Shown piece by piece: positions 546-63,302 of a stretch of DNA of 64,000 nucleotides; position 1 is the first letter of the stretch; every line of letters starts with the position of its first letter. This DNA is from Escherichia phage 241. A program made the translations under genes and the position numbers. Where the stretch lies: the sequence record OR924452. One strand, 5' to 3'. The notes beneath the pieces are model-generated. The model was given only the letters and a program-made list of their open reading frames with translations, was not told the DNA's origin and did no database searches.

Positions 546-690
546 AATACTTCAAAAATAATTTAAAAATTTATTGAAAAAGACTTTACTCTTCAATAAT
601 CATGCACTATTATAGTTCACATAGGGCGGTACACAACACCCCGCCGAATGAAAAGTGAAACGACCCAACTACATTATGAGGAATTACATC

Positions 691-3534: not shown

Positions 3535-3618
3535 ATACCACACGAACTTCCCCGTCGCCTTCAATCCATGGAGGCGACGTATAATAACAGCCTGCATTAA
3601 CACAAACCGAGGATCGCT

Positions 3619-7315: not shown

Positions 7316-7345
7316 AAAGCCCCTGATCTAGGGGCTTTACTTTTG
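7316..7345 (+). terminator. rho-independent terminator
   Basis: AAAGCCCCTGATCTAGGGGCTTT followed by a T-rich tract. Confidence 0.6.
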
Positions 7346-7415
7346 AAACCTTCCCGCCTATACTTCCCAGTAATTCATTGGCAAACGCCACAAATTGAAC
7401 AGCAGGTACTATATC

Positions 7416-7649
7416 ATGACCAATTCTGAAATATATCATGCTTCTATGCATTATCATGACCTACGCGCCCGTCCAGGACACGCCAAACAAAAAGCATTCT
7501 GGGTGGCAGAACTCAGATTACGCCGTGCCGTCGTTAACCACCAAATAATCATGAATCGGAAAAACGACAAATCACCGTTGTTGGCAGATTCTTATCTTGA
7601 ACTCCGCACGGCCTATGAACAAGCCAAACAGCACGTAATAGGAGCATAA
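7416..7649 (+). CDS. hypothetical protein (77 aa)
   Basis: ORF; track start at 7395 is TTG, first ATG is 7416; no strong RBS. Confidence 0.4.
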   Translation: MTNSEIYHASMHYHDLRARPGHAKQKAFWVAELRLRRAVVNHQIIMNRKNDKSPLLADSYLELRTAYEQAKQHVIGA

Positions 7650-8897: not shown

Positions 8898-10523
8898 TCA
8901 TGCGTCTTTACCACCAAAGTTGCCGCCATTATCCTCCAGTTCCGGTTTTATATCAATTGGACCAGGACCAGAAGTAGATACCGGAGTTGCCCCAGCGCGT
9001 GATGCAGCACGACCAGCACCTTCAGCATATTTGATGTTGCCTTCAATAGTCTGCGCCACCGACAACTTATCACAAACTATTTCACTAGCCAGTATTTTAG
9101 GCACTTTTAAAGTATTGGAAACTTCCAACATCTCACAGATGATACGCATCACGTTTTGCGCCTGAATTTCGGCCAGCTGTGAAAATTTCATCAACGCCGT
9201 GCCAGCAACCACATTGGAGTAGTTCGATGAATGTAGATGATAGACCTCACCTGTCTTGCGCTGAACTTCAGTCCCACCAATGGTCAGGTTGTGATCACGA
9301 CCAACATAGTAACGTTTGTCAAACATCGTCAGATCATAATGATCTTTGACTGATTTATTGACCACGTCCCCGTCAGGAAGCATCTGCTTATAAGACCCCG
9401 AGGAGTGCATCCAATGGAGACGTTCCCCGCCTGGTGTGTCATCAACCTCCATGATATGCCCTGACCGAGATGCCATGACATTGTTGTAAGGATAACGAGA
9501 CCCGCCAGCAGAAGGAACCGACACCTCTCCTGTGTTATCAATATCTTGAACACGCCCAGAAGGAGGCGGAGTTTCCTGAACTTTTGGTGTACGATCAGGG
9601 ATTGGCTCAGACCATTTACCATTTTGTTGTGTAGGAGCCGCCGATGCTGTCGTAGCAGGACCAGGCCAACGATAACCCAACACAGATGAGCGGCTGAAGC
9701 GACTCACCTTCACAGAATCTGATTGGTTGCCTCCAATACACCAAACATAATTGGCATCGAATTTCTGTACAAACGCAACGTGTCCAAATGTTGGGTTGTT
9801 GCCACGACGGAATACAACAACTGCGCCGTAACGGGGTTCTGACAAAGGGGAACCCCATTGCAAATATGAACGAGCCAAAGCCGAGCGCGTTGAAGTGTAT
9901 CCTGCTTGGATCAACACCCATCCCACAAATGAAGCGCACCAGCTGACTTCATCTTCCGAAGCGCCCAAAGATGTTGTCTTGTGATATTCCAAAATCCTTG
10001 GGTTATTATTGAATTTGCCAGAATATTCTTTGACACCTAATTCACCACGAGCCACTGTCATCCATTTCTCGGGATCATAACCGTCCACAGGCGGTTGAGG
10101 TTCTGGTTGTGGGTCGTCTTCAATCTTGACAGGAACATTTTCAACGGCGTTATATTTCTGTCTTTCTATAGATTGAACAACCTGGCCCAGCGCCAACGGG
10201 TTTGTGTCTGAACCATCCGTTGGTGTCGCCGCTGGCCAAACCCAGGCGATACGAATATTTTGGTATGCTTCATCCAAAGCAAATCCCATAACATCCGACC
10301 CGACTGTAATACCCGTTGGAGACCAGCCTAAACCTGCCGAGGAGGCGTTGGATGCTGGCATGAGCATTTTACCCCAAGGCAATAATTCGGTAGGTAAGAG
10401 AGTGGTATCTTCCGTGTGTACGCCATAGATGCGCACAGCGACGCGCCCGTTCTGGTCGGGATCATTCACGTCTTCAACGCGCCCGTAAAACCAACGCAAG
10501 TTGTCTAACATATTGAAACCCAT
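8898..10523 (-). CDS. 5: baseplate hub / tail-associated cell-wall hydrolase, gp5-like, with a CHAP/NlpC-P60-type domain in place of the T4 lysozyme domain
   Basis: N-terminus RWFYGRVEDVNDPDQNGRVAVRIYGVHTED resembles the gp5 N-terminal OB domain; central region has a Cys...His pattern (SWCASFVGW ... GHVAFV) typical of CHAP amidase/peptidase domains. Confidence 0.6.
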   Translation of the reverse strand: MGFNMLDNLRWFYGRVEDVNDPDQNGRVAVRIYGVHTEDTTLLPTELLPWGKMLMPASNASSAGLGWSPTGITVGSDVMGFALDEAYQNIRIAWVWPAATPTDGSDTNPLALGQVVQSIERQKYNAVENVPVKIEDDPQPEPQPPVDGYDPEKWMTVARGELGVKEYSGKFNNNPRILEYHKTTSLGASEDEVSWCASFVGWVLIQAGYTSTRSALARSYLQWGSPLSEPRYGAVVVFRRGNNPTFGHVAFVQKFDANYVWCIGGNQSDSVKVSRFSRSSVLGYRWPGPATTASAAPTQQNGKWSEPIPDRTPKVQETPPPSGRVQDIDNTGEVSVPSAGGSRYPYNNVMASRSGHIMEVDDTPGGERLHWMHSSGSYKQMLPDGDVVNKSVKDHYDLTMFDKRYYVGRDHNLTIGGTEVQRKTGEVYHLHSSNYSNVVAGTALMKFSQLAEIQAQNVMRIICEMLEVSNTLKVPKILASEIVCDKLSVAQTIEGNIKYAEGAGRAASRAGATPVSTSGPGPIDIKPELEDNGGNFGGKDA

Positions 10524-11030
10524 TAGTCAATTAGAATCATGGGTTATTTATGGCGGGGATTTGAAATCTGTCGAATAGTAATATTATAGGAAGCTCTGCT
10601 TCCGTTCAACTTTATTCTTTTCGTTTCTACTCGCTGAAGCTCGTAACACCGCCTTGACAGGCAGTCCCATTCCAATGCCATGGAGGCATAAAGGCGAGGA
10701 AAATACTGTACACCTCAGAACATGCGTAGAAAAGGATTATTTTTGCTTCAAAACAAATTCAAACCCCAATTTACACAACACTTACTTCAGCAACAACGGT
10801 GTTATAGCAATTTAAGGTTAAACGTTCCTGTCTTAACCTATAAAACAGGTAAGCAAAGAAAACCCCACATTACGTGGGGTTGGAAGATTTCTTGGACAAA
10901 CGTATCTTTAGTGTCTCTGTTAGCAAATCAAGATGCCAAGGCATCGACTCGCTTATTTCAAATATGCTATAGCCATGTGCCTTTAATTCGTCACACATCA
11001 CAAAGTAGGAGAGTAAATCAATTTCAAAAA

Positions 11031-11834
11031 TTAAATGAAAATTTCAGTGACACTGTTAAATTTGACTTCATGTTCTTTCCCACACGAAGGACATTTAATT
11101 TTCGTCGCGTAACGGATACGAGGAATCTTTTTAAAGAAATCGTCGGATATATCTTGAACAATCTCAGATTCAATATTTTCCCCCACCCATTTAACAAATT
11201 CATCTTTGACACGTTGACGTTCTTTAGCAACATCAGGTGCTATGCCAGGCTCTGCCGGATTCTCTACTTTCCAAACCTGACCATCATCGTCATACAAACA
11301 ATCAATAAATGTCGCGATCATTTGCTCCACAGATGATGCTTCGTTGAGCACTGAGGCGTCCGAGAAGGACGGTTGACGCATCTTGATGTGATAGCCACCA
11401 GGGAGGTCAAATGTTTCCCTGAAGCCTTCTGGGGACACGCATTTCACTTGGTTGAGGGGGATCGGTAAAACAAGTTCTTGACCACATTCTTTAAGGCCAG
11501 AAACTGGTTCTTCACCTTCATTTGTGTCGGATGGAACTTTGTTGTTACATTTGTATCGTATCTTCATGACCTCGCCGATAGATATACAGCGCATCTTTAA
11601 AAATACTTCTTCAGTAACACCGATTGGCAGTTTACTAAAGGGAACCCCAGCGTCAACACAACTATCAAACAGTTGCTCCAGCGTCGCTACACGTTCACTC
11701 ATAGGAGTGTTCGGATCAGCAACCTGAAGTAACATGGTCTGTTGCCCTGCTGTGAAAGCGCGGTATTTAATCACCGTCGGCCAGAAATCACTTTTGTGTG
11801 TTCTCTCAGTTTTGGGCAATGATGGTAAATTCAT
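11031..11834 (-). CDS. late structural protein, probably baseplate-associated; C-terminal CPSCGKEH zinc-ribbon-like motif
   Basis: GGAGA RBS before ATG at 11834; T4-type late promoter TATAAATA about 29 nt upstream; adjacent to gp5. Confidence 0.5.
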   Translation of the reverse strand: MNLPSLPKTERTHKSDFWPTVIKYRAFTAGQQTMLLQVADPNTPMSERVATLEQLFDSCVDAGVPFSKLPIGVTEEVFLKMRCISIGEVMKIRYKCNNKVPSDTNEGEEPVSGLKECGQELVLPIPLNQVKCVSPEGFRETFDLPGGYHIKMRQPSFSDASVLNEASSVEQMIATFIDCLYDDDGQVWKVENPAEPGIAPDVAKERQRVKDEFVKWVGENIESEIVQDISDDFFKKIPRIRYATKIKCPSCGKEHEVKFNSVTEIFI

Positions 11835-11862
11835 AATGTATCTCCACGGTATATTGTAACCA

Positions 11863-13520: not shown

Positions 13521-13809
13521 TTACTGGCTGTTGGCAGATATACTGCTTTTCGCCTTGCTGTTGATAACGGCATTTATTTGGGTTAAGGGATTTCTGACAT
13601 TCCTACACTCGTTGAGCGCCATGATATCTTTCTATGCTGTGTCCCCCCATAGTGACGTCAATGTACGAGCGGCAAATCAATCTGACATGTTGGCTGAATA
13701 CGTCATGATGCGTGATAAAGCAACCAGGATCGTCCTGTTTTCTACACTGGCGGGGGCGGTTATTATATTCATACAACACGTCTTGGAGGCAACTCATGCC
13801 GTTTTATGA
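13513..13809 (+). CDS. small membrane protein (98 aa, hydrophobic)
   Basis: ORF with GAGGTG RBS; predicted TM helices. Confidence 0.4.
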   Translation: MINYWLLADILLFALLLITAFIWVKGFLTFLHSLSAMISFYAVSPHSDVNVRAANQSDMLAEYVMMRDKATRIVLFSTLAGAVIIFIQHVLEATHAVL

Positions 13810-14041
13810 TTATGCCTGTACAGGTTGTGGTAATTCTTTCAGTACCAGAAGGTCTTGTGCTGAACGCCATACGCCTGAATTAGATCCATGCGCTGAATGT
13901 GGCGGTGAAATCAAAATGGTCATTGGAGCACCAAAGATCGTATCTGGTGTCCGTGGCCCACAATCCGCACCTGATGGCTTCAAAGACGTATTGCGTCATA
14001 TTAAGAAGCAGTCTGGGAAGGGGAATACAATCGATGTCTGA
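13796..14041 (+). CDS. zinc-ribbon protein (FmdB-like CxxC...CxxC)
   Basis: MPFYDYACTGCG...CAECGG; GGAGG RBS before ATG at 13796. Confidence 0.5.
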   Translation: MPFYDYACTGCGNSFSTRRSCAERHTPELDPCAECGGEIKMVIGAPKIVSGVRGPQSAPDGFKDVLRHIKKQSGKGNTIDV

Positions 14042-14525: not shown

Positions 14526-14549
14526 CTCAATAGCAAAAGGCAGTATAAT
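14526..14549 (+). promoter_or_regulatory. putative promoter upstream of gp32 (TCAATAG box, 10 nt spacer, TATAAT)
   Basis: CTCAATAG-caaaaggcag-TATAAT, about 70 nt upstream of the gp32 ATG. Confidence 0.35.
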
Positions 14550-18489: not shown

Positions 18490-18662
18490 TATTCACGTCA
18501 GTCCGCGCTATTCCAGCGTTCCGTTGTCTAACACAGAAGTGTTAACCAACTTTTCAATAAAAAGTGGTTTACATCTTCTAAAAAGGCAGTATATTAATGT
18601 TCCAGACGCACAGTTGAACATTAAACTGCCAAAGAAGGTTACTACACAAAAGGGTTTTTATT

Positions 18663-19622: not shown

Positions 19623-19694
19623 TTTAACTCAGAAGCATTCAATAGATGAAGGGGCTGCTATAATAGCAGCTCCTTTTGTTTATTGGAGCACACC

Positions 19695-20357
19695 ATGTCG
19701 TATTCGCTCAAAGGGTTGTTGAAGCGCCCCGTACATCTGTTTGTAAAACCACCTGCTGTCGAAGGGGAATATCCGGCACGAGGAGAGTTGTATTACGTTA
19801 AAGGCTCCAACGGTAGCGGCAAGTCCACTGTCCCTTCCTATCTGGCGGAGAATGATCCTCAGGCGTATGTCGTGACCTACAATGGCAAGATCATGCTCAC
19901 AGTTTGCCCTTCCTATAACATTATCTGTATTGGTAAATATGACAAGTCTAAGTCTAAAGGTGTTGATTCCCTGAAAGATACCGAGCAGATGTTGTTCGCC
20001 TTGTCCATTGCTGATCAGCCGGAATATCTGAAATATGACGTGTTGTTTGAAGGAATCATCCCTTCAACTTTGCTCAGCTCATGGATTCCCCGCCTGACGC
20101 GCCCACCGCGCGAATTAGTCGTGCTCTTCATGGACACCCCGCTTGAAACCTGTGTTTCCCGTGTGAAATCACGCAACGGCGGCGCAGACTTCAATGAAAG
20201 CCTGGTTGTCGAAAAGTGGGAGAGAGTTCATGACCACCGCCAACGGCATAAAGGCTTGTTCCCTACCGTTCCCGCAGGTATGATGAAGTCCAATGGCCTG
20301 ACTATAGAGCAGGCTGTTTTTGCGTTTCTCAATCGCGATTTTGGGAGTATTGATTGA
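19695..20357 (+). CDS. P-loop kinase-fold protein (candidate nucleotide or DNA-base kinase)
   Basis: Walker A GSNGSGKST; about 220 aa; TTGGAG RBS; directly upstream of the pyrimidine hydroxymethylase. Confidence 0.55.
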   Translation: MSYSLKGLLKRPVHLFVKPPAVEGEYPARGELYYVKGSNGSGKSTVPSYLAENDPQAYVVTYNGKIMLTVCPSYNIICIGKYDKSKSKGVDSLKDTEQMLFALSIADQPEYLKYDVLFEGIIPSTLLSSWIPRLTRPPRELVVLFMDTPLETCVSRVKSRNGGADFNESLVVEKWERVHDHRQRHKGLFPTVPAGMMKSNGLTIEQAVFAFLNRDFGSID

Positions 20358-24430: not shown

Positions 24431-25855
24431 ATGTTACTCGAATCTGTCGTGCTTTCCCAATTAATCTACAATGAAGAATATCAAAGAAAGATCCAGCCGT
24501 ATTTGAAAGCCGATTATTTCGATAACGAAGGCGAGAAGATTATATTTGGTCTTATAGACCATTACACTTGCGAATATAATGCTCGTCCTTCGGTTGAAGC
24601 GCTGTCTATTATGCTGGAAAAGACTTCGCTCAACGAACACGTATTTGATCAGGCCATTTCTGCTCTTGAAAATATTAATGACAATACTTTTCATCAGGAC
24701 TGGTTAGTAAAAGAAACAGAAAGTTGGGCGCGCCAGAAAGCTGTTCATAACGCAATTAGACAAGCCGTTAACATATACGGCGATGAGAAACGCAAAGATG
24801 AGATGAACAACATCCCTACTTTGCTGCAAGAAGCCCTGGCGATTCAGTTTGATTCATATCTCGGTCACATCTATTGGGAAATGGCTGAGCAACAATACGA
24901 CCACATGAACTCTAATGAAGCGAAGATCCCTTTCGCCGTAGAGATATTCAACAAAGCAACTCGTGGTGGTGTTGGCAAGAAGACATTGAACATCGTTACA
25001 GGCGCAATCAACGCAGGTAAGACAACAACTCTGATTGATTTGGCTGCTGGTTATGCCGAGCAGGGGTTGAATGTGTTCGTATTCACCCTCGAAGTGGCCG
25101 AGAACGTCTGGCGCCACCGCCTTGATGCCCGTATGATGCGCAGGGACTTCGAGTCCTTAGAGAAGCTCTCACGGCACGAGTATATTGCCACCATACAAAA
25201 ACTGAGAACCCGTCAAGACGGTTCCATGAAGGGTGATATTGTTATCAAGGAATATCCTTCGGGCGCGGGGCATACAGGTTTGTATCGTCGCGATATTCTT
25301 GATTATGCGACTGCAACAGGAATTACGCCTGATGTTATCATCATTGACTACCTGGGGGAATCTGCGTCTTCTCGCCTTCCCGCTCACTTGATGCAAAACA
25401 CCAACGTGTATTATACATCCGTGGCGCGGGAATTCCGTGCTCTTGGGTTTGAGTTTGATTGCCCTGTTTGGACAGGCATGCAGTTTAACCGTGAAAAGCA
25501 ATCAGCAACTGATGGTGATATCAGTGACTTGGCAGACGCTATCGGTATCCCGAAGGTCGCTGACTTTATCATGGCATTTTATGCCCCAGACGAACTGGCG
25601 GCTGTTAAGAAAGCCAGAGCATCAATCTTGAAAAATCGTTATGCCAACAAGCAGAAACTCAAATCTTTCTTGTTCGGTATGGACCAAGATAAACAGATAT
25701 TGTTCGACTTGGACTGGAATGAAGTCAAACGAGACCTGACTGATGAAGAAGCCCGTTATGTTGAAAACGTGCATATCAAGCATGACTTGAATAAAACGGG
25801 GGACTCAAATGATGTTAAAAAAGCCGAGACCGTCAATAGTTGGAATTTCGGTTAA
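24431..25855 (+). CDS. 41: replicative DNA helicase (DnaB-like, gp41)
   Basis: Walker A GAINAGKTT and DnaB-like helicase blocks; ATG at 24431 (track start 24425 is TTG). Confidence 0.85.
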   Translation: MLLESVVLSQLIYNEEYQRKIQPYLKADYFDNEGEKIIFGLIDHYTCEYNARPSVEALSIMLEKTSLNEHVFDQAISALENINDNTFHQDWLVKETESWARQKAVHNAIRQAVNIYGDEKRKDEMNNIPTLLQEALAIQFDSYLGHIYWEMAEQQYDHMNSNEAKIPFAVEIFNKATRGGVGKKTLNIVTGAINAGKTTTLIDLAAGYAEQGLNVFVFTLEVAENVWRHRLDARMMRRDFESLEKLSRHEYIATIQKLRTRQDGSMKGDIVIKEYPSGAGHTGLYRRDILDYATATGITPDVIIIDYLGESASSRLPAHLMQNTNVYYTSVAREFRALGFEFDCPVWTGMQFNREKQSATDGDISDLADAIGIPKVADFIMAFYAPDELAAVKKARASILKNRYANKQKLKSFLFGMDQDKQILFDLDWNEVKRDLTDEEARYVENVHIKHDLNKTGDSNDVKKAETVNSWNFG

Positions 25856-25918
25856 CTTCAATAATGGTGGTCATAGGGTATAATCTCTATGATCTGAATA
25901 TTAACCCAGGAGCACATC

Positions 25919-26251
25919 ATGTCGGATGTTGCATTTATAGCTGACCTGATTCAGGCGGCACAACAGGTGTGCCAGTCTGGACAAACCAGTCTCAGTCTGT
26001 CTACAGAGCAGACATTGGAATTTTACAAGAATCGACGGCATTGGGGTAAGGCTGTTAAGATACATTGCGAACCAGGAGAATTGGTTCAGCTCGATCTTCC
26101 ATCTTTCCCGTTGCCAGTGCAGACCAATACTCAGGAATATTATAAAGTTGAAGGTGTCGACATTATTCCTAAGTTTGGTTTCCACAGTATCGTTTATTTC
26201 TTCCTGCGCCGTTTGGGGACCAGTATTGGCCCACTCGGTTCTCGTCATTAA
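25919..26251 (+). CDS. hypothetical protein (110 aa)
   Basis: ORF with CAGGAG RBS. Confidence 0.45.
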   Translation: MSDVAFIADLIQAAQQVCQSGQTSLSLSTEQTLEFYKNRRHWGKAVKIHCEPGELVQLDLPSFPLPVQTNTQEYYKVEGVDIIPKFGFHSIVYFFLRRLGTSIGPLGSRH

Positions 26252-26612: not shown

Positions 26613-26693
26613 TTTGAAACCTTTACTTCAATAAAACATACGGCTATCATTTAACCTACTTTGAAAAGTTTCACTATATCATGAGAGGCAAAT

Positions 26694-27887
26694 ATGAAAG
26701 CCAAGACCTTCAGTATTCCTATCGACAACATTGGTCGTGTCAAGGAACGTCTGGCCAAACTTGAAAGAACGGCCAAGCGCCTGAATCTCGAGTTCCCTCT
26801 TGTCGAATACAGCGAATCATACAAAACCCAGCATCGCGATTCTATCACTGGTGAAAAATTCTATCGGTGGTGGCAGGATTGTACACTCACTGGTGAAGGC
26901 ATCGACCGCCCTGTTTCCTACGGCGGGTGGAGCATTATTGGACAATTCAATCACCAATATCCAAAAGTCATCTTGAATAAATTAGCAGATGACATCCACC
27001 CTAATTTCATTCAAAGATTCGAAGCCGAAAACGTGTCTTGGTGTGAGCATTGTAATAAATCTGTGCGTCGTCATAACACATATGTTGTTCGTAACGAACA
27101 ATCCGGCGCTCAAATGTTGGTCGGCAGTAGCTGTATGCACCATTACGTTCCTCATCAGAAATCGCTTGATGCCGTGATGTCTTATTATATGTCGATACAT
27201 GAAATGTTCTCACCTGATGAAGATGACCCTGAAGGCATCTATCGAGTGAACGAACCTGATTACGTTGACACTGAAGGTTATTTGCGGAATTGCTTTCAGG
27301 TTCTGCTATCTGGTATGAGTATGAAGAGCGATGATTTTGGTCGAGTTCTTGGTCATATTTCTAGCGGGACTCGTCCGGAGAAAGGTTCTGACATTGAGAT
27401 ATTCTATAACAAGGCAGTTAAAGCCCGTGAAGATGCTCAATCAGAGATGTACCATATGATGCTTTTCATCGCCGCGTTGTCTGAGAACAATGATTTCAAC
27501 GTTCGTCTGAAACGTATGTGTGAACCTGGATATCACCTCGTTAAGGACTCCACGACAGTTCGTTGGGGAGCAGCAAAGTATTATGATTATATCCACACCC
27601 CCCGCCAAATGCGTTCTGTATCAAATTGGGTGGGGGAAGTCGGTGAAATGTTAGAAGTGCAAGTCAAATTCGAAGCAAGGATTTTCCTGTATTCATCTGA
27701 TTATGGTGACACGTATCTGTATACTTTCAAAACCAAAGAAGGCAATACCATTACATGGAAGACTTCTTATATGGAAACCGAATTCCTGGAAGGTGATATG
27801 ATCATTCGTGGTCGCGTCAAAGAATTGACCGAATTCAAAGATGTTAAACAAACTCAGGTAACAAGGGCAAAACTGAGGAAATTATGA
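26694..27887 (+). CDS. hypothetical protein (397 aa) with internal Cys/His cluster
   Basis: ORF; WCEHCNKSVRRH...SSCMHHY suggests metal binding. Confidence 0.5.
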   Translation: MKAKTFSIPIDNIGRVKERLAKLERTAKRLNLEFPLVEYSESYKTQHRDSITGEKFYRWWQDCTLTGEGIDRPVSYGGWSIIGQFNHQYPKVILNKLADDIHPNFIQRFEAENVSWCEHCNKSVRRHNTYVVRNEQSGAQMLVGSSCMHHYVPHQKSLDAVMSYYMSIHEMFSPDEDDPEGIYRVNEPDYVDTEGYLRNCFQVLLSGMSMKSDDFGRVLGHISSGTRPEKGSDIEIFYNKAVKAREDAQSEMYHMMLFIAALSENNDFNVRLKRMCEPGYHLVKDSTTVRWGAAKYYDYIHTPRQMRSVSNWVGEVGEMLEVQVKFEARIFLYSSDYGDTYLYTFKTKEGNTITWKTSYMETEFLEGDMIIRGRVKELTEFKDVKQTQVTRAKLRKL

Positions 27888-28762: not shown

Positions 28763-28817
28763 TTCAATAACTGTTTCACCCATATAATACATGGGAATTT
28801 ACAGAAGGAACACAACT

Positions 28818-29159
28818 ATGACCACACTCGTAGAAACATTATTCCCAGGATGCACCCTTGGGCGCGGCGGTAGCGAAGCCAACGGGCTGGCAATTGACGC
28901 CGAACCACAGAACTGCGTTGTTATCGACAAATTCCATGACAATCACTATCCTCTGAGCCATCGCCGTGATCATTATCTGGTTTCTGTGGGTGAAACATTG
29001 GTCTCTCTTCGTATTTGTGAAGCAATGCCTGGTTATGGTTATGACGCATTTGCATATATCCATAGCGTTTCCAATGGGGAAATGGGGAAAGAAACCCTGA
29101 CTGAACAATTCAAAGGATGGAAAGAATCTTTTACGTCCGTCAAACCGCCGAAGAAATAA
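28818..29159 (+). CDS. hypothetical protein (113 aa)
   Basis: AGAAGGAAC RBS before internal ATG at 28818. Confidence 0.45.
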   Translation: MTTLVETLFPGCTLGRGGSEANGLAIDAEPQNCVVIDKFHDNHYPLSHRRDHYLVSVGETLVSLRICEAMPGYGYDAFAYIHSVSNGEMGKETLTEQFKGWKESFTSVKPPKK

Positions 29160-30582: not shown

Positions 30583-30607
30583 CTATTGAAGTCTCTGGGG
30601 TTATAAT
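30583..30607 (+). promoter_or_regulatory. putative promoter (CTATTGAAG box, 10 nt spacer, TATAAT) upstream of DNA ligase
   Basis: CTATTGAAG-tctctggggt-TATAAT, 27 nt before the ligase ATG. Confidence 0.45.
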
Positions 30608-30633
30608 AACAGGACGAATAACCCTGGAGACAC

Positions 30634-32074: not shown

Positions 32075-32096
32075 AAGGGGGTGTAACCCCCTTTCA
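32075..32096 (+). terminator. rho-independent terminator
   Basis: AAGGGGGTGTAACCCCCTTT. Confidence 0.6.
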
Positions 32097-32117
32097 ATAA
32101 ATCTATGGCAGTATAAT
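32094..32117 (+). promoter_or_regulatory. putative promoter (TCAATAAA box, 10 nt spacer, TATAAT)
   Basis: TCAATAAA-tctatggcag-TATAAT, 29 nt upstream of ATG 32146. Confidence 0.35.
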
Positions 32118-32145: not shown

Positions 32146-32409
32146 ATGAAACTTGTTGACAAACAACCAAGAAAGAATAATGACTCATTACATCTCTTAA
32201 CCATTATGCGGGAGTTGGGAGTTTCTGAATTGCAAATGATGAAGTTGATGAATTGTTCTGACGTTGTCTATAATTGGACAAACGGTTATCGTCTTATCCC
32301 AAAATCATTCCGTCGTTTTATTTTGGCATTGGTGTTTATTCATCGCCAAGGAAAAACAGAAGAGTTTCAACGTTTCGTTAAATCAGAGGAGAGATCACGT
32401 GGTTGGTAA
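32146..32409 (+). CDS. hypothetical small protein (87 aa), possibly DNA-binding
   Basis: ORF. Confidence 0.45.
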   Translation: MKLVDKQPRKNNDSLHLLTIMRELGVSELQMMKLMNCSDVVYNWTNGYRLIPKSFRRFILALVFIHRQGKTEEFQRFVKSEERSRGW

Positions 32410-38142: not shown

Positions 38143-38763
38143 ATGGCTATGTATTTGCAGGGGAAGTATGTTCCCGTAAATCCCAAGAAATATAAAGGCG
38201 ATGTGAACAAAATAGTTTTTCGTTCATCACTAGAACTTGTCGCCTTCAAATTCTGTGATATGAATCCTGCTATTGTTTATTGGTCATCCGAAGAAACCGT
38301 AATCCCATATATCTCTCCAGTTGATGGTCGCGCCCACCGCTATTTTATGGATTTGAAAGTATGGACTCGTCGACAAGACTCTGAAGAGTTACAGATAACC
38401 CTTATTGAAATAAAACCCAAAGACCAAATTAAAGAACCCCGAAAAACAAAAACAATGAAGGAATCAACGTTCAATAATTCGATGCGTACATGGCTGGTGA
38501 ACCAAGCGAAGTGGACCGCCACCAAAGAGCATTGTGCTAAAGTTGGTTGGAAATTCATTATTTGGACGGAAGAGCATTTGGTACCAGGAGAAGATCCTGA
38601 AGTTAAAAAACAATTTGCGCTACGTTCTAAGAAAAAGCGCGAGGTCGAAATGGAAGATCGACGCCGCGCTCAAAGAATTAATGCGTTGAAAGAGCAGATG
38701 AAAAAGGAAACTTCCAACAAACAAACGACAAACCCTGAAGATGACGGTTTGTTGTTACCCTGA
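38143..38763 (+). CDS. PD-(D/E)xK nuclease-fold protein, possibly head-completion (gp4-like)
   Basis: D...E.K arrangement (MDLKVW...ITLIEIKPK); basic C-terminal tail. Confidence 0.35.
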   Translation: MAMYLQGKYVPVNPKKYKGDVNKIVFRSSLELVAFKFCDMNPAIVYWSSEETVIPYISPVDGRAHRYFMDLKVWTRRQDSEELQITLIEIKPKDQIKEPRKTKTMKESTFNNSMRTWLVNQAKWTATKEHCAKVGWKFIIWTEEHLVPGEDPEVKKQFALRSKKKREVEMEDRRRAQRINALKEQMKKETSNKQTTNPEDDGLLLP

Positions 38764-38973
38764 TTTCCTTGGATGTCCAGGGGCAAAACAAGTTTGTTTG
38801 TCCCTGCATATCACCCATCCTTCCGAACGGGCTTGTCTAGCACAATCAGCCCAAGTTTCACCAGCATAAGACTTCATACCGCATCTTGGGTGGTGCTCTT
38901 GCCAAGCCCAATCACAAGATTTGCATTCCACGCATTCACAATACAAATCTAATGTGTATCCTGCGGTAATCAT
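38755..38973 (-). CDS. small Cys-rich protein (72 aa)
   Basis: CECVECKSCDW...C...C pattern. Confidence 0.4.
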   Translation of the reverse strand: MITAGYTLDLYCECVECKSCDWAWQEHHPRCGMKSYAGETWADCARQARSEGWVICRDKQTCFAPGHPRKSG

Positions 38974-39382: not shown

Positions 39383-39904
39383 TTAATTCCTTACTTTGTC
39401 AGGATTAGATAAGATTTGTTCGTATCCGACTTCTCCTTGATAGTCGAAAACATGCTGAAGAATCGCCATATCGTCTACCATCCGATAAACTTCAATTCCA
39501 GCGTTCATCAATTTTTTGATTCCATCCATAATACGATATGGCTCACGATAATATACTTTATCGATTTTACCGCTATCTATTATCTTTTGAGTGCAATTAG
39601 GGCAAGGACTATGTGTCACAAACATAACCAACCCTGTGAAATCATCTACATTTTCGGGGATACGCATTAGAGCATTTTCCTCCGCATGAACGACACACGG
39701 GTTTGTAACAATTTGCCCGTGTTGTTCCATCTCACAAACATTCGGCATGCCAGGAGGCGTTCCGTTCCATCCTATAGCCACAGGCTGATCAGTTTCAGGG
39801 TTTACAATAACACAACCGACTTGCAGACGCCGAGCATAACTGGTTACACCATATGCTGCAGCTGATCGCATATGAGCAAACATCATACGTGGTTTGATAG
39901 CCAT
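39383..39904 (-). CDS. cd: dCMP deaminase
   Basis: Zinc-binding motifs HAEENAL and PCPNC. Confidence 0.85.
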   Translation of the reverse strand: MAIKPRMMFAHMRSAAAYGVTSYARRLQVGCVIVNPETDQPVAIGWNGTPPGMPNVCEMEQHGQIVTNPCVVHAEENALMRIPENVDDFTGLVMFVTHSPCPNCTQKIIDSGKIDKVYYREPYRIMDGIKKLMNAGIEVYRMVDDMAILQHVFDYQGEVGYEQILSNPDKVRN

Positions 39905-40308
39905 TATTCACCTCTCAGAAGACGAGCGAAGCGTTCAACAATGCGATTGCGCGGCTTCTCGGGAACGATGTCTTCTACCGTAATGGTCAGTGTGTAGTTT
40001 GTAGAAAAATCGCAATCGGACTTTGTGATGATTTTCCGTTCACCAGGCAGCGGATACATCGTTAAAGCCCTATCGACGGAATCTAGAGAAGAACCGACCA
40101 AGTCCACCACCCTTTGGTGCCCGAACGATAATGGACCCACGACATCCTTTTCAAAAATTTCAATCACGTCGGTGACTAACACACCCAATGCAAGTCTTAG
40201 TCCAAGGTTCTGATTTTTATCCCCTAGTGTGTACACAAACTGCCGACGCCACAACTCTTTCCGGTCTTCAGAACGGACGAGAGAATAATTCAAATGGTAT
40301 TGTTTCAT
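39904..40308 (-). CDS. hypothetical protein (134 aa)
   Basis: ORF. Confidence 0.45.
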   Translation of the reverse strand: MKQYHLNYSLVRSEDRKELWRRQFVYTLGDKNQNLGLRLALGVLVTDVIEIFEKDVVGPLSFGHQRVVDLVGSSLDSVDRALTMYPLPGERKIITKSDCDFSTNYTLTITVEDIVPEKPRNRIVERFARLLRGE

Positions 40309-40622
40309 TTCACCAACACCTTTTCCAGGAAGAAGATCATGTCATCCTGGTCGGCACGGCCAAAGATCTGACCGAGGGACACCATGGAATGAACCTCTTT
40401 GACAATCAGGTCTTTGCCTGTTGCACCGCTGTTGTCCAATTCGAGAATTGTAGACATGCGCTCAACCATATGAGGTGGATGATTGATATAACGTTGAAGA
40501 TACTTTTCACGCAACGCAATTTTTTCGATAAGATCTGACATTTCTGCATTCTCTTCTGAATACAGACGTTCTTTAGATTTCAGTTCTTCGAGGCGTTCGT
40601 ACATTTCTTTTAATGAAATCAT
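40305..40622 (-). CDS. hypothetical protein (105 aa)
   Basis: GGGAGAG RBS before ATG at 40622 (track start 40637 is TTG). Confidence 0.45.
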   Translation of the reverse strand: MISLKEMYERLEELKSKERLYSEENAEMSDLIEKIALREKYLQRYINHPPHMVERMSTILELDNSGATGKDLIVKEVHSMVSLGQIFGRADQDDMIFFLEKVLVK

Positions 40623-40650
40623 GTTTGTCTCTCCCAATAAATTAAGGGGA

Positions 40651-40675
40651 AGTATACCTTCCCCTTCTTCAATAA
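40651..40675 (-). promoter_or_regulatory. putative promoter (TTATTGAAG box, 10 nt spacer, TATACT) embedded in a terminator hairpin
   Basis: Minus strand TTATTGAAG-aaggggaagg-TATACT, 28 nt upstream of ATG 40622; hairpin GGGGAAGG-tatac-CTTCCCC. Confidence 0.45.
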
Positions 40676-45718: not shown

Positions 45719-45951
45719 GCGTAACGTCTCCATTGTATAATTTCGTTGTCGACACAACTGACCTGAATGATACACATATTCTGGCGATGGTCGGTGAGTG
45801 TAATAATAAAACTGTCTGGTTGTGACATGACACGATTAACAGATATCCCGCGCGACATCAAACGAAAGCAAATTTCTTGATACAAACGTTGCATATATCC
45901 TGAAACAGAAGCCGATTCATATGCGCGTTCAAATTCGTATAATTCGTTCAT
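45715..45951 (-). CDS. hypothetical protein (78 aa)
   Basis: ORF. Confidence 0.4.
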   Translation of the reverse strand: MNELYEFERAYESASVSGYMQRLYQEICFRLMSRGISVNRVMSQPDSFIITLTDHRQNMCIIQVSCVDNEIIQWRRYA

Positions 45952-46172
45952 TTATTCAGACCATTAATAGCATTTTCAGAGATGTATTCGACGAATTGAT
46001 TGTCAGCCGCCATTTTTAAAAGTTCAAACAATTCAGTTCCAACTGTACTCCCAAACATTCCTTCCAATACTCCTTGGACATCTTCATCTATTTCTTCGAT
46101 GATGAGTCCATAAGATTTCAGGCGTCGCGAAATAGCACGGAACTGGGCAATATCTCCAATTTCATTTGCCAT
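45948..46172 (-). CDS. hypothetical protein (74 aa)
   Basis: ORF downstream of a promoter-in-hairpin element. Confidence 0.4.
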   Translation of the reverse strand: MANEIGDIAQFRAISRRLKSYGLIIEEIDEDVQGVLEGMFGSTVGTELFELLKMAADNQFVEYISENAINGLNK

Positions 46173-46202
46173 GGTATTATCTCAATATGGGGTTAGGCGG
46201 CA

Positions 46203-46227
46203 ATTATACCGCCATTTTCTTCAATAG
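46203..46227 (-). promoter_or_regulatory. putative promoter (CTATTGAAG box, 10 nt spacer, TATAAT) with the -10 in a hairpin loop
   Basis: Minus strand CTATTGAAG-aaaatggcgg-TATAAT; hairpin GGCGG-tataattg-CCGCC; about 30 nt upstream of ATG 46172. Confidence 0.45.
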
Positions 46228-46634
46228 AGGTCTTCGGAAAAGAGTTCACGGAAAGGAGTGTTCTTCAAACGAACTTGATTGGTTTGTCCAGCTTCACGGG
46301 CTACAATAGCCGCCTCTTCCCTAGACATCCATTGCCCATAGTTATCGATAAACCCTTGTTCACGCGTGCGGGTGTTTTCGATAACACCTGCTTCCTTCAA
46401 TCGTTTCAGTTGCGCATTCATTAATTTGTCGTGGTGACGGGCGCTTACAACGATGACATCACCATATCTGTTGGCAGCGGCCACTACGCGGCGGTCAAAT
46501 TTAGTTGGGTCTGGTATATCCCGAGCATATAGGGCGATATGGGTGTCGTCAACATCCCCTTTGACTTCAGAATATAACTGGCCACCATTAGGAGATCCAG
46601 TGGGTAAAGAACGAAAATAACCGAGTAATTTCAT
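46221..46634 (-). CDS. hypothetical protein (137 aa)
   Basis: ORF. Confidence 0.45.
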   Translation of the reverse strand: MKLLGYFRSLPTGSPNGGQLYSEVKGDVDDTHIALYARDIPDPTKFDRRVVAAANRYGDVIVVSARHHDKLMNAQLKRLKEAGVIENTRTREQGFIDNYGQWMSREEAAIVAREAGQTNQVRLKNTPFRELFSEDLY

Positions 46635-51641: not shown

Positions 51642-52145
51642 CTAGCCCAGAAACACTACTAAAGTCAAATTTGTAAAGCAGCTGCGATTATCTTTTAACA
51701 TTTGATGGGCAGCGGAAAGGCGCTTAGCATCATGCAGAGTATCTGAAAACACGATGATATTGGCCTTGTCGATTTTGGTTCCCATAAAATTGGCCATGGT
51801 CGACGTTTTCTCTTTTCGATCAAATTTTTCATACTGCTCCCCTGTGGTTACATTTTTCGATTGAGTGAAAAACGTATCACGTTCACGAGCAGTGTGAAAT
51901 ACACCGAATACGTCGATTTCATTTTCAATTTGGAATTTTTCAGAAAGGAGTTTCTTTAACGCCGCAGTGTGACCAGTCTGGCGAAGCATTCGATAGTAGA
52001 GCATGCTCCCACTGTCTGCGGGATCAAGGTCGTGACGAATCCGGCGATCTTTTTGAATTTCATACGCATCTAGAACCAATTGTTGGATCATTTCAATATG
52101 CGCATTAAGAGATACTTCTACTTTTCGTTTAACTAGAGATTTCAT
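51642..52145 (-). CDS. hypothetical protein (167 aa)
   Basis: ORF. Confidence 0.45.
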   Translation of the reverse strand: MKSLVKRKVEVSLNAHIEMIQQLVLDAYEIQKDRRIRHDLDPADSGSMLYYRMLRQTGHTAALKKLLSEKFQIENEIDVFGVFHTARERDTFFTQSKNVTTGEQYEKFDRKEKTSTMANFMGTKIDKANIIVFSDTLHDAKRLSAAHQMLKDNRSCFTNLTLVVFLG

Positions 52146-59609: not shown

Positions 59610-60048
59610 CTGTTTCTCCTTTTGCTGCATATGCCAGTGCTTTTACGATCATCACGGCCAGTCCGATTGGATCGTACATGTTATCGAATTCTTGTTCTAC
59701 AATCTGACGTATTTCATCAGAAGATTGTACTTCGGAGCAGTTCTTGCTCTGTCTACGTTGTTCTTGCTCAACGAGGTCTTTGAACAGAAGGTCTTTGAAA
59801 GAATACTCATCGAAGTTTTCCAGATACTGCTGGATACTTGGTTGTTTCGCATCCATCGTTCTACGCAGATTGCTGATAGTTGAACTCGCCTGTTCGCGGT
59901 GTTTGTTCATAACGGAAAAGTTCACGGGTTGTCCCCAAGCGTTCGTCACTGTGTTGGAACACACTTGTCCGAAGAGATCTTGGAAGGCGTCATCCAGATG
60001 AATCAGCGCGGCGGCCAGTTCATCATAAGTTGGTTTTTGAGCAGTCAT
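59602..60048 (-). CDS. hypothetical protein (148 aa)
   Basis: ORF. Confidence 0.45.
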   Translation of the reverse strand: MTAQKPTYDELAAALIHLDDAFQDLFGQVCSNTVTNAWGQPVNFSVMNKHREQASSTISNLRRTMDAKQPSIQQYLENFDEYSFKDLLFKDLVEQEQRRQSKNCSEVQSSDEIRQIVEQEFDNMYDPIGLAVMIVKALAYAAKGETDV

Positions 60049-60428
60049 TTTCGTTTATTCCTATTTTTAGATTTCTTGGCTTGACGTTTATGCTGGGCGG
60101 CTCCATACAAGCGCGGAGGCTTTTGATAACGCTGTGAGGCAATTATATCCCTGTAGTCGGCTTCGGCTTCACAGCAAGAAACATCCGTTCTTCGTAATTG
60201 TGCGACCGCTTGTGACACCAGCATTTTACGTTCGCTTTCTACCAGGTCATCACAAATTATCATGCGCTCGCCTGGTTCACAACGACGTTTGGGAATGTCG
60301 TCAACACTGATGCATTCCACCTCAACGCCTTTCAATTTTTCTTGAAGGATGATGGCCATAGTACGAGCGCCCACCCCTCCTCCAATAATTGCAATCTTTC
60401 TTGGCTTGTCAGACATAATACATTCCAT
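60045..60428 (-). CDS. hypothetical protein with Gly-rich dinucleotide-binding-like N-terminus
   Basis: KIAIIGGGVGA motif; basic C-terminal tail. Confidence 0.45.
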   Translation of the reverse strand: MECIMSDKPRKIAIIGGGVGARTMAIILQEKLKGVEVECISVDDIPKRRCEPGERMIICDDLVESERKMLVSQAVAQLRRTDVSCCEAEADYRDIIASQRYQKPPRLYGAAQHKRQAKKSKNRNKRK

Positions 60429-60434
60429 AAAAAA

Positions 60435-60468
60435 GAGGATAGAGCAATAATACCCTATCCCCCTTTAT
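60435..60468 (-). terminator. terminator hairpin with AATAAT loop; one of two near-identical intergenic elements
   Basis: GAGGATAG-agcaataatacc-CTATCC with flanking T-tract on the minus strand; followed by the shared TTTATTGAAGAACG. Confidence 0.5.
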
Positions 60469-60478
60469 TGAAGAACGA

Positions 60479-62602: not shown

Positions 62603-62985
62603 AACACACCATCCACGAGTTGTTCCTTCGTCATACCAAGAAGTTGATTTTTATGACCTGATTCAGCTCCATTTTTCAACAACAGATCCCAACGTTCTTC
62701 ATGATACCGTGGAGTCATTGCATCGTCAAAAGAAACATGGTGGCGATGCATAATTGTTGCAACGGTATGAAGAACGATTGCTGTCGCTCTTTTTAAAGCA
62801 CGTGTATCAGTGATATGGTCTTCATATTCGATACCCATCAAATCGAGTTCTTTCCGAATATATGCAATAGACAAATCACCTTCAGAATGCAATTTAACAA
62901 TAGTCGCTTTCTTAGGATGTAACACGCCGTCTGTTTCTTTCATGAACAGATCGTACAAATATTGTTTGTATTCGGGGCGCATCAT
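62599..62985 (-). CDS. hypothetical protein (128 aa)
   Basis: ORF with ATGA coupling. Confidence 0.45.
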   Translation of the reverse strand: MMRPEYKQYLYDLFMKETDGVLHPKKATIVKLHSEGDLSIAYIRKELDLMGIEYEDHITDTRALKRATAIVLHTVATIMHRHHVSFDDAMTPRYHEERWDLLLKNGAESGHKNQLLGMTKEQLVDGVL

Positions 62986-63221
62986 CTCGTAATCCCTCCG
63001 GCACAGATAATATTCAGTTCACCGCGACGGAAACCGCCTTGCCCATCGTCCAACTTAGTCAGAAGTGTATGTGCATCTCGAACTTTCTGAGCGAACTCTT
63101 CCGACACCACCAGATGACCCATCAGAGGAGTCTTTTCTTGTTTTGGGGTGGATTCAAAATAGTCACCAAACGTCGCTTCCATATCCAGCACAGACATATC
63201 TTCAATTCGTTGCATTGCCAT
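62982..63221 (-). CDS. hypothetical protein (79 aa)
   Basis: AAGGAAA RBS. Confidence 0.4.
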   Translation of the reverse strand: MAMQRIEDMSVLDMEATFGDYFESTPKQEKTPLMGHLVVSEEFAQKVRDAHTLLTKLDDGQGGFRRGELNIICAGGITR

Positions 63222-63244: not shown

Positions 63245-63274
63245 GGGGAACGGGCTAATAATAACCCATTCCCC
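63245..63274 (-). terminator. terminator hairpin with TAATAATAA loop; second copy of the repeated intergenic element
   Basis: GGGGAACGGG-ctaataataa-CCCATTCCCC, T-rich flank on the minus strand. Confidence 0.5.
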
Positions 63275-63302
63275 TTTATTGAAGAACGCAATCGCAGTCA
63301 GA

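Follow-up and report, generated by a model that had tools for sequence, protein, structure and literature searches.

The DNA ligase gene of Escherichia phage 241 is preceded by a short box that stands ten nucleotides ahead of a TATAAT hexamer, at positions 30583 to 30607 of the stretch of DNA analysed here (one strand of sequence record OR924452, 64,000 nucleotides in length, referred to below as the window). What kind of signal is this arrangement, and could the box take the place of the -35 element of a promoter? An earlier note had listed the same arrangement upstream of at least four genes on both strands and had proposed that it may represent a phage-specific class of middle promoters. 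Direct reading of the sequence recovers the four sites exactly as that note described them; they are given here together with a possible degenerate member.

Putative promoters with the box in reverse orientation
30583..30607, + strand: putative promoter of DNA ligase, CTATTGAAG-N10-TATAAT, 29 nt before the ligase ATG
40651..40675, - strand: putative promoter of ORF 40305-40622, TTATTGAAG-N10-TATACT, whose -10 falls within a terminator-like hairpin (loop and 3' arm)
46203..46227, - strand: putative promoter of ORF 45948-46172, CTATTGAAG-N10-TATAAT, with the -10 in a hairpin loop
58824..58848, - strand: putative promoter of rIIA, CTATTGAG-N11-TATCAT, directly after a terminator
7340..7364, + strand: possible degenerate member before ORF 7416-7649, CTTTTGAAA-N10-TATACT, with a low position-weight score

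The 4-kb segment around the ligase site shares 99% identity with Salmonella phage Matapan and 95-99% with many other Kuttervirus genomes, and we assign the window DNA to a ViI-like Kuttervirus of the family Ackermannviridae. Which sites count as intergenic is decided by a gene map of the window that we curated by hand from the Matapan annotation. On this map 93.1% of the window is coding, and 4,393 bases (6.9%) are intergenic. The window carries ORFs 1419-1724 and 39904-40308 in addition to those of Matapan, and has no counterpart (at ~24430) of the HNH endonuclease that precedes the helicase gene in Matapan. The 210 nt at 38764-38973 are without annotation in Matapan, yet a possibly coding 72-aa ORF (38755-38973, - strand) is present there.

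The box and -10 element as a composite

One fixed register, TATTGA-N12-TAT(A/C)(A/C)T, fits all four reverse-box sites. The pattern TATTGA-N12-TATMMT has 4 matches on both strands of the 64 kb, against 0.10 expected from 100 dinucleotide-preserving shuffles, none of which yielded more than one match. All four sites are intergenic and share the strand of the gene that follows, and 28-53 nt separate the end of the -10 from the start codon; at 46203..46227 the TGA within the box is the stop codon of ORF 46221-46634. Specificity is found only in the composite of box and -10, not in the bare hexamer TATTGA, of which the window holds 73 copies, mostly in coding sequence. Since the four composite matches are all intergenic against a chance expectation of 0.10, the motif is not as frequent in coding sequence as it is upstream of genes, an outcome that the earlier note had named as one that would speak against a promoter class. 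Its description of a recurrent, gene-proximal and promoter-like module holds: the module is non-random, intergenic and conserved in related genomes.

The distance between box and -10 is, as had been noted, too short for a sigma-70 -35/-10 pair, the TTGAAG of the box lying just 10 nt upstream of the -10. At 16-18 bp from the -10 the sites have no -35-like hexamer (scan of 24-44 kb, covering the ligase and 40651 sites), and all four are absent from a whole-window scan for -35/-10 pairs that match at 10 or more of 12 positions. In 20 kb, 38 canonical -35/-10 pairs were counted where 41.6 were expected, which is no enrichment, and canonical sigma-70 promoters were reported at eight per genome (PMC3184105). 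A T4-type late element like TATAAATA occurs at none of the four sites. Late motifs of the form (C/T)TAAATA stand without the box upstream of the baseplate, tail and lysis genes of the window, TAAATA being 25-fold enriched in intergenic sequence, and the structural module of Matapan (26-63 kb) contains no exact-box site. We also compared the arrangement with the host consensus sequences for sigma-32 (-35 CTTGAA), sigma-28, IHF and FNR; none fits both the sequence and the spacing.

The box in both orientations

Printing every upstream region in the direction of its gene revealed a larger group of sites with the box turned round. The conserved core of the reverse box, TATTGAA, is the exact reverse complement of the core of this forward box, TTCAATA. 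The forward box is placed 10-14 nt (mode 12) before a TATAAT-like hexamer at 8-10 further intergenic sites in the window and at ~10 elsewhere in the genome.

Putative promoters with the box in forward orientation
592..616, + strand: putative promoter of ORF 691-1179, TTCAATAA-N11-TATAGT
3560..3585, + strand: putative promoter of nrdA with a degenerate box, TTCAATCC-N12-TATAAT
14526..14549, + strand: putative promoter of the ssDNA-binding protein gene (ssb), CTCAATAG-N10-TATAAT
19638..19664, + strand: putative promoter of ORF 19695-20357, TTCAATAG-N13-TATAAT, with the -10 in a terminator hairpin loop
25857..25884, + strand: putative promoter of ORF 25919-26251, TTCAATAA-N14-TATAAT, with the -10 in a hairpin loop whose stem covaries in LIMEstone1
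26627..26650, + strand: putative promoter of ORF 26694-27887, TTCAATAA-N10-TATCAT, with a -35-like TTTACT overlapping the box
28763..28788, + strand: putative promoter of ORF 28818-29159, TTCAATAA-N12-TATAAT
32093..32117, + strand: putative promoter of ORF 32146-32409 (87 aa, weakly HTH-like), TTCAATAA-N11-TATAAT
60447..60472, - strand: putative promoter of ORF 60045-60428, TTCAATAA-N12-TATTAT, with the -10 in a terminator-like hairpin loop; kept in 14/14 loci
63258..63283, - strand: putative promoter of ORF 62982-63221, TTCAATAA-N12-TATTAT, with the -10 in a terminator-like hairpin loop
52190..52215, - strand: possible degenerate member before ORF 51642-52145, TTCATTGT-N12-TATAAT

The pattern TTCAATAR-N9-15-TATNNT has 10 matches in the window against 0.23 expected; in Matapan it has 6 at 1-50 kb (0.12 expected) and 1 at 50-100 kb (0.11 expected); boxes with one mismatch add ~10 intergenic sites. 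In an unbiased k-mer comparison TTCAATAA was the most intergenic-enriched 8-mer of the window (~17-fold), with 10 of its 22 copies in the 6.9% that is non-coding; the other top k-mers were TATAAT, the late motif TAAATA and terminator stems. A position-weight scan of the window, as proposed in the earlier note, placed all of its 14 best composite matches in intergenic sequence and on the sense strand, a ranking that is illustrative and not independent because the matrix was trained on the sites it ranks. The reverse-box sites are the inverted minority of a larger set of probable promoters in Ackermannviridae, in which TTCAATA(A/G) stands ~12 bases before a TATAAT element. The arrangement that had been noted is indeed recurrent and conserved; since the window alone contains 8-10 more sites in forward orientation, it makes up only about a quarter of the full set, and its box is the inverted form of the commoner TTCAATA(A/G).

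Throughout the catalogue the -10 ends 18-74 nt before the start codon, and the box frequently lies directly after a stop codon. The genes behind the box sites are ligase, rIIA, ssb, nrdA, denV, neighbours of the helicase and polymerase genes and many small ORFs, a set to be expected of prereplicative transcription, be it early or middle. At Matapan 25808, where a leftward cluster of small, early-looking genes and tRNAs begins, a forward box was the sole promoter-like site to be found.

The two orientations share their position relative to the -10. Read on the opposite strand, the ssb box CTCAATAG gives the rIIA box CTATTGAG exactly, and the box TTCAATAG at 19638 likewise gives the ligase box CTATTGAA. 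The spacing of the reverse class is 10 nt counted from the 9-mer, or a fixed 11 nt counted from the 8-mer; that of the forward class is 10-14 nt, with mode 12. With the -10 set at -12 to -7, the 8-mer spans -32 to -25 at modal forward sites and -31 to -24 at reverse sites. The box keeps its position and is turned round. It is uncommon for an activator that has to contact the polymerase to use an asymmetric box both ways, and the spacer range of 10-14 nt in the forward class is wide; both points count against an explanation by a promoter class.

Two other geometries were considered and rejected. The reverse boxes are not forward promoters of the opposite strand, because no -10 follows them there at 9-15 nt. 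The box could also be half of a fixed dimer palindrome, and second copies do exist, at 571-599, at the ligase locus of non-Kuttervirus genera (CAATA-ATC-TATTG) and at rIIA (TTCAATTGAA), but their spacing differs from site to site, so that no single dimer geometry fits.

The second copy at 571-599 belongs to an inverted repeat of two boxes, TTATTGAA-N13-TTCAATAA (571-578 with 592-599), located before ORF 691-1179. Its upstream member at 571-578 could drive an antisense transcript (TTCAATAA-N10-TATTTT, minus strand 578-555). At three other places (window 18552-18597 and 26622-26650, and Matapan 96282) a T4-early-like -35 (TTTACA or TTTACT) at canonical spacing accompanies the TTCAATAA box, with non-standard distances of 29, 10 or 6 nt between box and -10. 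These sites may form a separate early class, or the box may also be an operator.

Conservation and hairpins around the -10 element

Footprints of the sites were compared in related loci, which were pulled from IMG/VR using the ligase, DexA and rIIA proteins. In 9-19 loci, which come from several genera and include phages of Dickeya (LIMEstone1), Klebsiella and Serratia, each putative promoter has retained its own box with its orientation, spacer and -10, while flanks and upstream genes change. At ligase, box and -10 are intact in 18 of 19 Ackermannviridae loci. The alignment is near-invariant from a few bases before the box through the box, the 10-nt spacer and TATAAT; the upstream flank is wholly divergent between genera, and the upstream gene changes. 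An 81-nt segment with the ligase promoter candidate matches 196 phage records by BLAST, with homology mostly beginning 7 nt upstream of the box. The site at 40651..40675 keeps its box, -10 and a covarying stem in 18 loci, the site at 46203..46227 is kept in 13 loci, and the site at 25857..25884 is present in 18 loci, in forward orientation with a spacer of 13-14 nt. Box and -10 of rIIA are kept in 14 of 14 loci. There the box is CTATTGA(G/A) in Kuttervirus and the palindrome TTCAATTGAA, which contains both orientations, in other genera; in evolution this palindrome could plausibly have linked the two orientations. More distant members of the family, two of which we take to be a Klebsiella phage (Menlow) and the Serratia phage MAM1, still carry both types.

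Many of the conserved -10 elements are located within hairpins. Among the 25 catalogued -10 hexamers, which were chosen in part by our own search criteria, 11 lie inside a hairpin of -8 kcal/mol or below (38-nt frame), compared to 11.5% of 964 other TATAAT-like hexamers of the genome (Mann-Whitney p = 0.006). Covariation between genera is seen in the stems, and the loop stays TATAAT-like.

Hairpins with the -10 in the loop, and the ligase leader hairpin
Window: 25865-25900, 19645-19680, 40644-40666, 46196-46215, 60436-60470 and 63245-63281
Matapan: 11800-11835, 71710-71745, 80380-80410 and 83615-83650
30591..30631, + strand: conserved 14-bp ligase leader hairpin (RNAalifold, 8 loci, -21 kcal/mol), with one pair covarying as GC/AU/GU

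Several of the -10 hairpins are followed by T runs and were called terminator-like. Among these is the hairpin at 40666-40644; several forward-box sites also fit a GC-rich hairpin with a T run. The ligase, 46203..46227 and rIIA sites do not fit an intrinsic terminator over the -10, and at rIIA, ssb and 32093 the -10 is not covered by any hairpin. Terminator and promoter function can coexist at one site, and the arrangement suggests compact terminator-promoter modules or structure-assisted promoter opening; in principle, the -10 loops of terminator-like hairpins could be conserved for another reason. In such a module, read-through RNA from upstream would be terminated at the -10 hairpin, and new transcripts would start inside the hairpin because the -10 lies in its loop.

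The leader hairpin of ligase has the first 3 nt of the -10 in its 5' arm and the ligase Shine-Dalgarno sequence GGAG in its 3' arm, and it would pair the Shine-Dalgarno only in RNA that began upstream of the putative promoter. In read-through RNA the ribosome-binding site would be paired and poorly translated, and in RNA started at the promoter it would be free. A hairpin of this kind makes sense only if transcripts also start inside it, which lends indirect support to initiation there. In phage T4, the ribosome-binding site of gene e (lysozyme), soc and gene 49 is hidden in read-through RNA and is set free by a promoter within the hairpin; this hairpin control of translation was reportedly described by McPheeters et al. 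in 1986. As in gene e, the ligase hairpin pairs the Shine-Dalgarno with a segment upstream of the predicted start site; unlike in T4, where the internal promoter is a late one, the internal promoter here would be of the box type.

A probable promoter class, its rivals and candidate factors

All four reverse-box sites share a box near -28 in either orientation, a TATAAT-like -10, an intergenic location on the sense strand and conservation across genera. A phage-specific promoter class with a geometry like that of T4 middle promoters is well supported at the level of sequence by these patterns. From them we infer, and consider rather probable, that the four sites are promoters of a prereplicative (early or middle) class spread through the Ackermannviridae, active with a sigma-70 -10 and with a factor-bound box in place of the -35. 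Host RNA polymerase with sigma-70 would read the TATAAT-like -10, and the 8-9 bp box (C)TTCAATA(A/G), centred near -28, would stand in for the -35 element. The box would be functional either way, forward in the majority of sites and inverted in the minority described above. By analogy with the T4 MotA box, a phage-encoded or virion-delivered factor would bind it and recruit or re-target the polymerase, with transcription starting ~7 nt after the -10 and leaders of 12-68 nt.

The likeness to T4 middle promoters that had been pointed out earlier is one of geometry. The MotA box is a 9-mer, (a/t)(a/t)(a/t)TGCTTtA, which lies 12±1 bp away from the -10 and which MotA binds as a monomer, and AsiA reshapes sigma-70's region 4 (PMC2988021). 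The distance here has mode 12 in the forward class and is 10-11 in the reverse class, and the analogy holds because the geometry is equal. Further likenesses are the sigma-70-type -10 (TATAAT, TATACT, TATAAT and TATCAT at the four sites) without a -35 and with a box near -30, the position in front of genes that serve replication, recombination and the metabolism of nucleotides (ligase, rIIA, ssb, nrdA), and a T4-related genome with late control of the gp55/gp33 type. Unlike in T4, the box is YTATTGA(A)G or TTCAATA(A/G), without the TGCTT core, as had been recognised; it occurs in both orientations, its spacer range of 10-14 is wider, and no motA or asiA homologue accompanies it. MotA boxes of T4 are not known to work both ways. 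Middle transcription in T4 begins ~1 min after infection and depends on the activator. The box class is, as judged from these differences, not a MotA system.

The promoters might instead be used by unmodified host RNA polymerase alone, with the box touched by sigma-70 region 4 or the alpha subunit, as an early class that has no phage activator; hypermodified thymidines, which we take this phage DNA to carry, would perhaps change what makes a good upstream element. The scarcity of canonical sigma-70 promoters and our failure to find an activator gene are in keeping with this, as are the lone forward box at Matapan 25808 and the TTGAA(G/A) within the reverse box, which matches TTGACA at 4-5 of 6 positions. 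However, only 10 nt separate that TTGAA(G/A) from the -10, well short of the 16-18 nt tolerated by sigma-70, the forward box is unlike TTGACA at the -35 position, and the -10 hexamers are without the TGn extension with which a -10 can function by itself, so we regard host polymerase alone as unlikely. Use of the box in both orientations, and as the inverted pair of 571-578 with 592-599, would suit an operator, at which a phage DNA-binding protein shuts off or tunes promoters that consist of a -10 only. Such a protein could be the encoded HU-family protein, in analogy to TF1 of Bacillus phage SPO1, or the 87-aa protein with weak XRE-like fold matches. Box copies also occur at unusual distances: at window 18568 one precedes a canonical TTTACA-16-TATATT pair by 29 nt, at Matapan 96282 one precedes a -10 by 6 nt, and in the loci L009, L020 and LIMEstone1 one lies downstream of a -10. 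Against this, in almost all intergenic sites that carry a -10 outside the late regions, the box stands in one and the same position and a -35 is lacking, which gives the box the look of a core element, and the preferred distance (mode 12), kept promoter by promoter, indicates a fixed geometry with the polymerase; an operator seems to us quite improbable.

The sites might, finally, not be promoters at all, and represent terminator or RNA-processing modules with AT-rich, TATAAT-like loops next to a motif of other function, or mere coincidence. The 11 of 25 hexamers in strong hairpins, several of them followed by T runs, and the frequent placement of the box straight after a stop codon would agree with this. 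Chance is excluded by the counts, 4 against 0.10 and 10 against 0.23; the rIIA, ssb and 32093 sites lack a hairpin over the -10, an RNA motif would not occur in both orientations, and the loops stay TATAAT-like while the stems covary and Rfam finds no family match within the window. We give this explanation very little credence.

If the sites are promoters with a factor-bound box, as we prefer, a protein that recognises the box may be encoded by the phage. The earlier note had suggested looking for MotA/AsiA-like factors. Pfam (MotA_activ, MotCF and AsiA; E <= 0.01) finds none among 131 small uncharacterised proteins, nor does any of these have a sigma-70 or HTH domain in Pfam; the set covers the window and Matapan 8-100 kb with ORFs of at least 45 aa, that is all but 1.7 kb of the genome. 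BLAST had likewise given no MotA or AsiA (Kutter 2011, PMC3184105). Among the matches that the Pfam scan did give are an HU-family protein (gene at Matapan 86319-86597), a zinc-ribbon protein (window 13796-14041) adjoining the gp33 homologue, a zinc-finger protein of the DUF3268 type and a domain of ADP-ribosyltransferases.

An 87-aa basic protein (32146-32409), encoded just downstream of ligase behind its own putative forward-box promoter, has 4 clusters of homologues, found in this phage group only, and no Pfam or PDB sequence match. Its AlphaFold model has five helices and is poor (pLDDT 61), and the top Foldseek matches are all HTH folds of the XRE or lambda-repressor type, none of them significant (E > 0.4). 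We regard it as a lead only to a candidate factor. The RefSeq record of phage Se-J has a 'transcriptional regulator' within this 4-kb stretch, which may be the 87-aa ORF. A 167-aa basic protein (51642-52145) belongs to PHROG 4164, 'histone family DNA-binding'; Pfam gives no hit for it and the PDB only a sequence match without significance (E 0.52), and the degenerate forward box TTCATTGT-N12-TATAAT lies upstream. A protein set from window 46.7-63.9 kb and Matapan 8.9-45.7 kb includes a small protein with a Pfam match to ART-PolyVal (ADP-ribosyltransferase, E 8e-11) and another with a match to DUF3990. The former is, to judge by its sequence pattern, probably a ~150-aa ORF near Matapan 17.4-18.3 kb and could be a candidate polymerase-modifying enzyme; the CBA120 paper reports no Alt/ModA-type enzymes.

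Small activators offer a further comparison. The C proteins of restriction-modification systems and other small XRE-type activators act at a short box over the -35 region, as the box here would, and the genome encodes a small protein with weak XRE-like fold matches, which at E > 0.4 and pLDDT 61 are not significant; unlike C-boxes, which are palindromes bound by dimers, the present box has no symmetry and stands singly at most sites. In Bacillus phage SPO1, the HU-family protein TF1 binds hydroxymethyluracil DNA at early promoters and represses them. The present phage would resemble SPO1 in its presumably hypermodified-thymidine DNA and in encoding an HU-family protein; the differences are that TF1 represses and that the HU-like protein shows no link to the box. 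A more far-reaching proposal, which we think possible though doubtful, is that in Ackermannviridae phages host RNA polymerase is redirected by a factor without sequence relation to MotA/AsiA, which reads the asymmetric 8-bp box at -28 either way, with the -10 elements placed deliberately in hairpin loops to unite promoter recognition, termination and translational timing. If true, the replacement of the -35 contact would have been solved a second time and independently.

Neither the CBA120 nor the AG3 paper (Kutter 2011, PMC3184105; Anany 2011, PMC3121705) could identify early or middle promoters, and in the LIMEstone paper promoters were assigned by similarity to T4 consensus sequences. The LIMEstone1 GenBank record labels the site orthologous to 26627..26650 a 'putative middle promoter' and has no promoter mark at the ligase site or at the site downstream of the helicase. 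The ligase site has no promoter feature in LIMEstone1, CBA120, ViI or 60 sampled GenBank records. The forward motif may already be in print: the abstract of Adriaenssens et al. 2012 (Arch Virol 157:2035) is said to mention 'conserved regulatory sequences'. A 2024 review of the Ackermannviridae does not mention promoter, transcription, sigma, RNA-seq or transcriptome, and the literature searched contained no study of transcript 5' ends, timing, in vitro transcription, transcriptome or start sites in this family.

ViI-like phages are widely used in biocontrol, diagnostics and engineering. A defined consensus with ~25 mapped candidate sites per genome makes the promoter question directly testable, and the box sites are candidate native promoters for reporter or payload genes. 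By analogy with T4, the box class may point to a polymerase-redirecting factor beyond MotA/AsiA.

Apart from the box sites, large non-coding gaps with common repeats were observed at window 10512-11030, Matapan 25746-26108 (L003) and Matapan 67818-68152. The repeats have no match in Rfam. The sequence GGAATGGGACTGCCTGTCAAGGCGGTGTTACGAGC is common to the window gap 10512-11030 and Matapan 25.9 kb, and a CGAGTTGTGAG...AACGAG repeat is found at Matapan 25.9 and 67.9 kb; these repeats may mark a candidate origin or a small RNA.
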